Of a stretch of 64,000 nucleotides of DNA, positions 58,291-61,577 are shown piece by piece. The translations under genes and the position numbers were made by a program. The DNA is taken from contig OZ024742.1 of NCBI GenBank assembly GCA_964016885.1, positions 189,286,001-189,350,000 on the forward strand. The letters are read 5' to 3'. The number at the start of each line of letters is the position of its first letter. The first letter of the stretch is position 1. The DNA is from Eledone cirrhosa. Its lineage: Eukaryota. The notes beneath the pieces are model-generated. The model was not told the DNA's origin and did not search any database. It saw nothing but the letters and a program-made list of their open reading frames with translations.

Positions 58291-58797
58291 ATACAACAAG
58301 CAAATATTTTTATAACTGATAAAAAGCACCCAACAAGTATTTGGAGTAAACATACGATATTAACAAATGGAAACTATATTTATAAAACCATATTTATTTT
58401 ATTATACATATTTCAAGGACTCCACGTTAAATTATGGTGTGCTTTCATCAGACAAAATATAATATAGATCAGTTTTATAAATAAATATTGACATACCATT
58501 AAAAAATGCAACCATTACTGTTGGAAGCTGTTGGAAGCTTTCAACAGTAATGGTTGCATTTTTTAAGGGTATGTCAATATTTATTTATAAAACTGATCTA
58601 TATTATATTTTGTCTGATGAAAGCACACCATAATTTAACGTGGTGTCCTTGAAATATGTATAATAAAATAAATATGGTTTTATAAATATAGTTTCCATTT
58701 GTTAATATCGTATGTTTACTCCAAATACGTGTTGGGTGCTTTTTATCAGTTATAAAAATATTTGCTTGTTGTATCCCAACAATTTAAATAGAACTTT

Positions 58798-58800
<3 letters not shown>
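58291..58800 (+). mobile_element. PLE-like hairpin element with hammerheads (arms 58291-58528 / 58537-58774)
   Basis: ~238-bp near-perfect inverted arms, short residual tail, TA flanks. Same family as 16389-16801. Confidence 0.88.
58607..58669 (+). ncRNA. Type I hammerhead ribozyme (mirror in left arm)
   Basis: attttgt-CTGATGA-aagcacacca-taatttaacg-tggtgtcctt-GAAA-tatgta-TA-ataaaat. Confidence 0.8.
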
Positions 58801-58856
<56 letters not shown>

Positions 58857-58860
<4 letters not shown>

Positions 58861-59433
58861 AAGTTAATATGCCCACAGGTACTAAGTACCCCTGGAAATA
58901 TATAGGGTGTCTATGATACAAGGGTTGTTCTATAGTATTAATTTGACATACCAGAACTATAATATTGAGATAAGCAGAACAAGCAAGATTTAAACAATTT
59001 TTTAAAATAAATTAAAAAATATAATTTAAATATTTACCTATTCCAATTGCTTTTACCGATCGGTTTCACTTCACAAAAGATTAGAGATCCCTAGGGACCT
59101 CCAATGGAAAAGTTTAGATCATCAGAAAGCATTTTCCTTTCCTAGGACTAAAAGTCCCAGGAACGGCAAAATATATTGCCATCTGCCAGCTAGCACAGGA
59201 TCGAATGGGGCCGAAAATTTGACCTATGCATGAACCAGTCCGAAGTAGAAGCGGAAGTAAACATAGACGTATTGTCTACCTCACCACTAAAAATAGCAGC
59301 TCAATAGAACAACAGATTTGTTCTCTACATAACGGAGAATATTAAAAGAAGTTAATATGCCCACAGGTACTAAGTACCCCTGGAAATATATATTTTAAAA
59401 AATTGTTTAAATCTTGCTTGTTCTGCTTATCTC

Positions 59434-59442
<9 letters not shown>
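58857..59442 (-). mobile_element. Retrozyme-like non-autonomous PLE: 488-bp unit with terminal redundancy and short inverted arm
   Basis: 58857-58904 is repeated exactly at 59345-59392. 58959-59008 is inverted at 59393-59442. No ORF, one hammerhead, (TA)n flanks. Confidence 0.75.
59048..59131 (-). ncRNA. Type I hammerhead ribozyme with ~50-nt domain II
   Basis: Minus strand: tgcttt-CTGATGA-(~51 nt including hairpin attggaggtccc-ta-gggatctctaat)-GAAAC-cgatcg-GTA-aaagca. Confidence 0.82.
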
Positions 59443-59481
<39 letters not shown>

Positions 59482-60049: not shown

Positions 60050-60490
60050 TGTGGCGAATTGGCAGAGTCGATAGAGCGTCGGATACAAAGATTTATGGTA
60101 TTTGTTCCGGTTCTCTGCTCTCTGATTTCAAATCTCACCGAGGTAAACTTTGCCTTTCATCCTTTCGAGATCGATAAAATAAAGTACCAGTCTAGTACTG
60201 GGTTCGATTCTTCCTCTTTCCGGAAGAAATCTGTTGTACTCAGGCCTGGAGAGGGATGGGGGTTCATTAGGGTTTAAATGCCCAAGATACGCCGTATCTC
60301 AACACGGCGCTCCTACGATTCTATGAGGAGTTACGGGACCGTACATTCATACATGATACCAATAGCAATACGCTTTTTTTCTCTTTTACCTGTTCCAGCC
60401 ACCCGGCTGTAGCCATATTGGGGTACCACCCTTGTTGCTTCACTTTCTATATCCAACCTGCGTTGGCTGGCCATTGATGTGGTAGGTTAT
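60050..60490 (+). mobile_element. Long-tailed Meta-like SINE
   Basis: Head and core, followed by an ~280-nt extension that is shared with 60729-61153(-) and partly with 15140-15455(-) and 63165-63295. Confidence 0.75.
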
Positions 60491-60728
60491 CTTCATACTT
60501 TGCTGTGGGTTCATCTGGGATCTTGGATGTGTTAAGATGTTTCTTGAAAACATCTACATCCACATCCTGTTGATGTAGATGTTTGTTACAATGGTTTCTG
60601 ATTTAGGCACAGGGCCAACAAATTTTTTTGGGGGGTGGGGGGGTGGGGGGAAGTCGATTAAATCGACCTTAGTATGTTACTGCTACTTTATTTTATCGAC
60701 ACTGTAACCTAAGGGTAGCAGCAACGAA

Positions 60729-61153
60729 CTCCCTTCTACATCAATGGTCAGACAAAGCAGGATGGGTATAGAAAAGGAAGAAACAAGGGTGGTGCCCCAG
60801 CATGGCCTCAGCCGGATGGCTGGAACAGGTAAAAGAGAAAAAAAAAGCGTATTGCTATTGGTATTATGTATGTATGTATGGGCCCGTAACACCTGGTAGA
60901 GTCATAGGAGCGCCGTATTGACATACGGTGGTTGCTGGGCATTTTAAGTCAGGCGAAGCCTATCCCTCTCGTGGCCTGAGTACAGCAGATTTCTTCTAGA
61001 GAGAGGAAGAATCGACCCCAGTACTAGACTAATACTTTATTTTATCGACCTCGAAAGTTAACCTCGGCGAGATTTGAACTCAGAACGTAAAGGGCCGTAA
61101 CTATATGCCACAAAGCATGCTGTCCGACGCTCTACCGATTACTGCTAATCCAC
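60729..61153 (-). mobile_element. Long-tailed Meta-like SINE, inverted relative to 60050-60490
   Basis: Reverse-complement match over ~420 nt. Confidence 0.75.
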
Positions 61154-61399
61154 AATCATTGTTTGTTATAATGTAGTGATGACGATGACATTGTAGTGAT
61201 GATGATGATATTATAGTAAAGGTGATGATGATGTGATGACGATAATGTAGTGATGGTGATGATAATGTGGTGTTGACGGCGATATTGTTGTAATGGCGAC
61301 AATACAGATGTGATGACGGTGATAATGTAATGAACACGATGATAATGTTGTGATTACGATGATATTGTAATGATCAAAACGATAATGTTGTTATGACAA

Positions 61400-61577
61400 T
61401 AATTGTTTCTACTTTATGCACAAGGCCAGCAATTACCCAGTGCATTACTGGTACTTTATTTTATCGACCCCCTAAGGATGAAAGGCAAAGTTAACCTCGG
61501 CGGGATTTGAAATCATATCGTAAAGGGACGTAACTATGCTGGAAAGCATGGCGTCCGACCCTCTACTAATACTGCCG
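61400..61577 (-). mobile_element. Meta-like SINE
   Basis: Close match to 19903-20085. Confidence 0.85.

Follow-up and report, generated by a model that had tools for sequence, protein, structure and literature searches.

The closest described systems are the metazoan non-LTR retrozymes, for which mobilisation by Penelope-like element (PLE) machinery is proposed (PMC7229834; bioRxiv 10.64898/2026.07.22.740005), and the PLEs themselves, whose insertions are described as partly tandem, with a 5' copy in inverted orientation and a one-sided tail (PMC8557442, PMC3846280). The PLE tail is bounded by two RT start sites that have been mapped in vitro (PMC11167929). Cervera and de la Pena proposed in 2020 that circular RNA serves as the template for tandem cDNA (PMC7229834), and more-than-unit reverse transcription of a circle is a tentative model in PMC4209133. 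The origin of the tandem and inverted insertions of PLEs and the role of their hammerheads are described as open (PMC8557442, PMC4209133, PMC11167929), and for animal retrozymes the circle model is founded on the detection of circles in cells rather than on a demonstration of their copying back into the genome.

We analysed a 64,000-nucleotide stretch of the Eledone cirrhosa genome (hereafter the window), which contains an insertion comparable to both systems, together with related loci of the same assembly. The insertion agrees with non-LTR retrozymes in its small non-coding unit with less than 45% GC, its type I hammerhead and the head-to-tail order of units. It does not match the LTR retrozymes of plants, as its motif is of type I rather than type III and its overlap length is freely variable. 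The RT/GIY-YIG ORF that an autonomous PLE carries between its pseudo-LTRs is absent from the window and from between the repeats of the 162 family loci described below. We regard it as almost certainly a non-autonomous hammerhead element mobilised by PLEs.

Layout of the window insertion

The insertion occupies 58857-59442 and is composed of a 536-nt arm that starts at the outer start site and a 52-nt inverted arm that starts at the inner one, with (TA)n target tracts bordering it on the left (58802-58856) and on the right (59443-59478). Its RNA sense is the minus strand. The long arm comprises a complete non-coding unit of 488 bp (58857-59344, 35% GC) and the first 48 nt of a second lap (59345-59392, minus strand), which terminates in an ATATATA stretch (unit positions 45-49), the end point of 10 of the 218 family arms with start-site ends. 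A sequence-only reading of the window had reported this direct repeat, and 58857-58904 is indeed repeated exactly at 59345-59392, over 48 bp and with a period of 488. The same reading described an inverted arm of 50 bp; the arm is present, with a measured length of 52 bp, 59391-59442 (plus strand) being the exact reverse complement of 58958-59009. The inverted arm starts at the inner start site, at unit position about 102-106, and BLAST carries it to 59388, resulting in a 5-nt overlap with the direct part (59388-59392). The interval between the inner and the outer start sites, both placed from the ends of copies, forms a "tail" of 101-105 nt (58857-58961, minus strand).

The unit has no ORF, as the reading had stated: the longest ATG frames measure 24 aa in the RNA sense and 39 aa on the antisense strand, and the longest stop-free frame 70 aa, even with the unit taken as a circle. 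We rejected coding or rolling translation on these lengths. The unit is strongly structured (fold z = -6.1, with none of 100 shuffles equally stable). The window copy spans 1.1 units and is a monomer in the terms of Li et al.; having one hammerhead, it cannot release a 488-nt monomer by itself. It diverges by 2.2% from its closest relative and by 8% from the median, and is an ordinary, probably inactive member of the family and probably a dead end. The 48 bp are simply the stop point of this copy and arbitrary for the family, because 5' ends are spread across the unit in other copies, where the overlap ranges from less than 20 to more than 400 nt.

Several other repeats were recorded in the window. 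A separate inverted insertion of another family lies at 58291-58800. Each of its 239-bp arms has a type I hammerhead (core at 58614 on the plus strand, identified by eye), whereas a tail, ~26 nt long, is confined to the right arm; this family recurs in other loci examined. We considered the 239-bp palindrome as a part of the window insertion and rejected it, as it belongs to a different family and has its own ends. Type I hammerhead-like motifs of other repeat families were found at 23846 (minus), 48314 (plus) and 52684 (plus). Two inverted pairs were noted at 60058-61149 and 60123-61515, an older one of 433 bp whose arms are 79% identical and one of 81 bp that belongs to a common short repeat. 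A weak tRNA-like Rfam match at 18224-18281 (29.1 bits against a cut-off of 29) is probably the head of a short interspersed repeat.

Structure and conservation of the hammerhead

The type I hammerhead was located at 59048-59131 (minus strand) by motif inspection, folding and covariation. It has a perfect core (CUGAUGA at 59125-59119, GAAA at 59067-59064), a 6-bp helix I formed by 59131-59126 and 59053-59048, and a helix III (59064-59055) that is palindromic, and by its motif position the predicted cut falls after GUA, at 59054/59053. Helix II (59118-59112 with 59074-59068) opens with a U.U first pair and contains a 2x2 internal loop, with a predicted side hairpin of 26 nt (59105-59080). The hammerhead had been called well formed, which holds for the core, helix I and helix III and overstates helix II, which is weak. 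In the predicted circular ensemble, the helix II pairs of the window copy have a probability of about zero and helices I and III have probabilities of 0.2-0.5. An Rfam scan of the window did not find the hammerhead at the gathering score.

To assess conservation, we hand-picked 22 related representatives from 137 motif matches, a few of which belong to other families. The core is invariant across the representatives. Two-sided change was observed at 16 of 28 hammerhead pairs, a level reached by none of 500 shuffles, and pairing dropped from 89% to 33-51% in slid controls. Since these sequences are relatives of one another and themselves supplied the structure, we take covariation as support and not as a probability; it supports a hammerhead that would be retained while the sequence changes, its core fixed and its helices covarying. 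At position 10.1-11.1, 79 of the 137 matches have U.U and 15 have G-C, whereas G10.1-C11.1 is described as highly conserved in PMC4209133; 12 of the 22 representatives lack a standard pair at this position. The U.U mismatch that opens helix II has been described as a natural variant retaining more activity than other mismatches do (PMC3088659), and a palindromic helix III is suited to dimers (PMC4209133).

The U.U base also occurs in several unrelated hammerhead families in the flanks of many loci (among them L030, L060, L108, L112, L118 and L190), the two commonest with 18 and 8 matches, so that the variant is widespread in this genome. A 483-bp tandem family (L016:1-1470, L021 and L024) follows the same hammerhead plan with an otherwise different unit and carries the canonical G10.1-C11.1. 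In a further tandem (L233:2322-3600) the hammerheads lie 485, 335 and 297 bp apart, so its laps are shortened internally, possibly through template jumps.

Family copies and their start sites

We counted patterns genome-wide in one 3.0-Gb assembly, using reversed patterns as controls. The hammerhead 20-mer gave 97 exact matches at 84 loci, the tail 18-mer 409, the head-to-tail junction 25-mer 71, and a looser hammerhead pattern capturing the wider family 1,398, against 0 for every control. A total of 162 loci was then compiled from a BLAST list (37), the hammerhead pattern (65) and the tail matches (60, from the first 100 listed of the 409, more distant subfamilies included). These loci contain 243 arms, 99 of which start at the outer site (unit position 1-13), 119 at the inner site (about 102) and 25 elsewhere, with 5' ends dispersed over the unit. 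Among start-site ends in the first 102 loci, 117 of 130 have (TA)4 within 20 nt; duplications are unreadable inside (TA)n.

The head-to-tail junction is crossed in 92 of the 162 loci and is present in 71 exact copies, so that the 48-bp redundancy is not unique to this locus. None of the 162 loci has an RT-coding body between the repeats, RT-like matches being found in the flanks of 14 and in no case between repeats. Both results stand on the side of the sequence-only reading, which had named a locus-specific redundancy and an intervening RT body as observations that would speak against it. It had further proposed a search for tandem arrays with a 488-bp period: tandem junctions do exist, and the window's own subfamily reaches a maximum of only about 2.2 units, with only two pairs among the 71 exact junctions lying one unit apart. 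Four runs whose kind is not recorded, from 2 samples of 1 study, also have the family in their contigs, which carry no information on strand, ends or circles; none of the runs listed is on record as RNA.

Family copies show partial tandems, 5' truncation and an inverted 5' copy. Among the 162 loci we identified 48 inverted insertions, 41 of them with both outer ends classifiable, and 40 of these 41 pair an outer with an inner start site (about 2e-11 at 50:50). The sister subfamilies described below follow the same pairing in 17 of 18 (457 bp) and 10 of 10 (481 bp) cases, yielding one start site per arm in 67 of 69 inverted insertions overall. Tail length is 101-105 nt in the window's family and 101-109 nt across the inverted insertions counted. 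One exception, L146, was rejected as an outer-plus-outer case, its left arm continuing through the junction with its own end lost, and was still counted as an exception. The sole unexplained exception, L282 (G000:C3:54557000-54564000), is inner plus inner, with about two units per arm inside a very long degenerate (TA)n. The outer-plus-outer assignment of L275 and L192 was discarded as an artefact of the identity filter, both being outer plus inner. With one site per arm, both target ends would prime on the same RNA. L1 twin priming produces abutting arms; classical twin priming was rejected here, as the arms overlap in sequence and their junctions are dispersed across the unit.

Rare alleles are shared at 0.35 per 100 sites between laps of one insertion (40 pairs) and at 0.40 between inverted arms (34 pairs), against 0.02 between random loci (4,000 pairs). 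The sharing between arms bears out the proposal that the inversion is part of the same insertion, and these rates support, for the window's family, what may be one template per insertion. A two-unit parent with unlike units was rejected: consistent differences between lap 1 and lap 2 are expected from it, and the commonest recurrent differences go in both directions within an A/T run, the others being seen two or three times.

Long arrays in two sister subfamilies

Two sister subfamilies were analysed, one of 481 bp (83% identity to the window unit over positions 2-481) and one of 457 bp (72% over positions 19-254). The 16 insertions of the former and 39 of the latter are top-ranking BLAST hits and pattern matches from the start of the list, and the sample is therefore biased to young, long copies; 40 loci had entered the 457-bp analysis, of which L234 was excluded by the identity filter. 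Sizes among the sampled insertions are 1.1-28.3 units (457 bp) and 1.1-7.4 units (481 bp). The longest array (G000:C1:156425690-156438635) is one inverted insertion in (TA)n, with 19.1 units from the inner site and 9.2 units from the outer site. Of the 18 whole units of its left arm, 10 are identical, and two variants are present in all 28-29 units on both arms.

A variant fixed in every covering unit and absent from the other sampled insertions was found in 15 of the 55 young insertions (10 of 39 in the 457-bp and 5 of 16 in the 481-bp subfamily, with 2 to 28 units each), next to 81 single-unit variants in the same 55 insertions. Three private variants, picked for many units on both arms, were searched genome-wide. 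They gave 27, 10 and 6 exact matches, none of which lies outside the insertion concerned, and occur on both of its arms. The candidate 289A>G of L273 was discarded as a private variant, being also present in L234. Other variants are shared by part of an array, in 6 of 28 scattered units and in 2 of 28 adjacent units of the longest array and in just 2 of 7 units of L269. One unchanged circle is insufficient as an explanation of these, and they point to some later duplication, conversion or assembly error.

Autonomous PLEs of the same genome

Autonomous elements with an RT, a CX4CxxC linker and a GIY-YIG domain sit in (TA)n in the same genome, and the linker agrees with the description of the Neptune clade, which has a CX2-5CxxC linker and microsatellite targets (PMC8557442). 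Two stop-free frames with RT, CxxC linker and GIY-YIG region are candidate enzymes, one of 938 aa (L123:4809-7622, minus strand) and one of 1,096 aa (L125:2275-5562, plus strand). In the inverted autonomous PLEs L128 and L130 a tail, about 60 and 40 nt long, is confined to one of the two arms, and some 75-110 nt before the inner end there is a sequence resembling the 3' half of a hammerhead.

We found no partner sharing the end of the unit among 28 PLE loci (about 7 groups) from 10,597 GIY-YIG candidates, nor any element ending in the unit among eight long-ORF loci and the RT matches in the flanks. L160 resembled a partner and was rejected, as it is a distinct PLE that ends in (TA)n and has a hammerhead of its own. 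In one case (L116:2490-3540; G000:C3:200083500-200090000), an inverted PLE tail, an RT piece and a 3' UTR piece are fused, in the sense orientation, with a family copy at its 5' end; this junction reflects either a template switch between partner and passenger RNAs or a nested insertion with a deletion.

Nature of the template

We think it probable, from the patterns of arms and variants, that a borrowed PLE-type RT/endonuclease copies a unit-length circular RNA and is primed from both cut ends of the (TA)n target. One unit-length, covalently continuous RNA copied repeatedly from both target ends would be the simplest account. The circular or tandem ~488-nt RNA of the sequence-only reading is thus supported, and between its two forms the sister subfamilies favour a repeatedly copied unit-length template; as arrays are long only in the sisters, a circle is assigned to the window copy by homology. 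A locus with two or more hammerheads would be transcribed and cut at GUA, and a 457-488-nt monomer would be ligated into a circle. Insertion would follow into (TA)n where, as genomic copies show, copying begins at either of two fixed sites ~100 nt apart. Both target ends would prime on the same RNA, in keeping with the pattern of one site per arm, and the length over which each cDNA runs round the circle would vary, from the 536 and 52 nt of the window copy to as many as 19 and 9 laps in a sister copy. The two cDNA ends would finally be joined via a few bases of microhomology.

The predicted cut site lies just 91-197 nt ahead of the start sites. Across the family, 185 of 218 arms cross it and 7 of 218 stop within unit positions 193-202; since arms cross it with no pile-up of ends, the template was uncut or religated there. 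A linear cut template, for which a pile-up of 5' ends at the cut site is predicted, was rejected on the same 218 arms.

An uncut template could also be a long read-through RNA of a genomic tandem array, with the element as a non-autonomous PLE passenger and no circle involved, which we consider unlikely. A lizard PLE initiated internally on unprocessed linear RNA in vitro and inserted it, hammerhead cleavage being dispensable (PMC11167929). Read-through accounts for the crossing of the cut site, the clean junction and the part-array variants, and two hammerheads are covered, by coordinates, in 13 of the 162 loci (one in L160 partly deleted). It requires a parent array, however, and the three variants fixed on both arms have no parent locus anywhere in the assembly, while the 19-unit arm would need a parent of at least 19 units, itself in need of an origin. 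Against the circle, parent arrays may be missing from one assembly, the lizard PLE did not depend on hammerhead cleavage, and 8 of 9 Xenopus retrozyme dimers are reported without cleavage (bioRxiv 10.64898/2026.07.22.740005).

Local DNA amplification as a source of arrays is discussed by Li et al. and is a known route for tandem repeats (bioRxiv 10.64898/2026.07.22.740005). Short PLE-type insertions would on such an account have been expanded and homogenised later by unequal crossing-over or conversion, and the variants common to adjacent or scattered units in two arrays fit with this. Fixed variants nevertheless cover both inverted arms, yet the 81 single-unit variants of the 55 insertions stayed unspread, and the sister arrays are about 99% identical to each other, with fractional unit counts and ends at the two start sites, which leaves expansion in DNA very improbable.

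Other non-LTR RTs are known to make end-to-end jumps between templates. An RT re-copying a linear cut monomer by jumps from its 5' to its 3' end would fix variants in all laps, and so would rolling on a small DNA circle; we give either very little credence. Template jumps usually add or lose bases, whereas none of the 140 laps scored, all with intact flanking motifs, has an indel at the cut site, where ends do not pile up either. A DNA circle leaves the conserved hammerhead and the excess of sense-strand A>G changes unexplained. That the element is a mere terminal repeat of a long autonomous PLE after 5' truncation is largely refuted and next to impossible: PLE hammerheads in animal genomes are mostly in truncated copies (PMC4209133) and the autonomous PLE piece of L116 adjoins a copy's 5' end in the same orientation, but the unit recurs head to tail with a period of 457-488 bp, the 162 loci have no RT-like match between repeats (L160 being a separate element), and the 3' ends of the 28 PLE loci lack similarity to it, except for a separately inserted sister copy in L124.

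Repeated copying of a unit-length circle, our preferred reading, admits a bolder version, which we offer tentatively and lean against. The insertions may be a fossil record of single hammerhead-made RNA circles, on which a dimeric PLE RT would roll for up to 19 laps, so that changes in that one RNA molecule, including A-to-I editing of its hairpins, would enter every unit and drive the evolution of the element. A-to-I editing of the template would yield A>G on the sense strand. On that strand, A>G makes up 9 of 26 distinct fixed variants and 8 of 81 single-unit variants (Fisher p 0.005, in a post hoc comparison of small numbers). The ratio of A>G to T>C is 9:3 among fixed and 8:15 among single-unit variants (p 0.035; binomial for 9:3 alone, 0.15), and among fixed variants it is 7:0 in the 457-bp and 2:3 in the 481-bp subfamily. 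Of the seven A>G fixed sites of the 457-bp subfamily, six are predicted to be paired, compared with a mean pairing of 0.64 over all A. The excess in the 457-bp subfamily is a possible imprint of RNA editing.

Comparison with known systems

Both the retrozyme class and the circle hypothesis are already published, and the new part is the genomic evidence from the sister arrays. Our literature search, mainly of open papers, found no cephalopod retrozyme, no report of insertion-private variants fixed across arrays and no counted one-site-per-arm rule. Fixed-variant arrays address a step that was proposed without demonstration in the available text of PMC4209133 and PMC7229834: private variants fixed in both inverted arms constitute a simple genomic test of copying back from a circle, applicable to any long-read assembly with young arrays. 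By the one-site-per-arm rule, the pair of start sites observed in vitro is linked to the pair of ends of a single insertion. The family provides a template of 457 nt that is young, its genome contributes candidate enzymes with long ORFs, and positions 223, 279, 289, 317, 325, 420 and 439 of the 457-nt unit are candidate sites for RNA editing.

As in metazoan non-LTR retrozymes, the unit is small and carries one type I hammerhead, and copies range from monomers to multimers and are found together with PLEs. Unit length is 457-488 nt here, compared with 170-400 (PMC7229834) and 51-972 (bioRxiv 10.64898/2026.07.22.740005). Unlike the retrozymes of these reports, the element has a helix II that is long and branched and a position 10.1-11.1 that varies and frequently lacks a pair, and its single inverted insertions, PLE start sites and insertion-private fixed variants differ from what the available text of these two reports describes. 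Cleavage and circular RNA were shown for retrozymes in published cases, whereas the element presented here is known from DNA.

With the endonuclease-bearing PLEs (Arkhipova et al. 2013, PMC3846280; Craig et al. 2021, PMC8557442) the Neptune clade included, it shares partial tandems, an inverted arm, a tail confined to one end, (TA)n targets and a hammerhead shortly before the 3' end. It differs from them in having no ORF, a tail of 101-109 nt instead of the usual 30-40, up to 28 units per insertion and a near-strict one-arm tail (67 of 69). Poseidon_Ac, as studied in vitro (Frangieh et al. 2024, PMC11167929), likewise has two internal RT start sites flanking the tail, an AT-rich target of which both strands are cut and extended, and a predicted dimer; it differs in being autonomous and in using linear RNA with a dispensable hammerhead, and the available text of that report describes no multi-lap products. 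The hammerhead itself resembles those of PLEs in its long helix II and palindromic helix III (Cervera and de la Pena 2014, PMC4209133), and the U.U at the base of helix II corresponds to the U10.1-U11.1 variant of Perreault et al. 2011 (PMC3088659).
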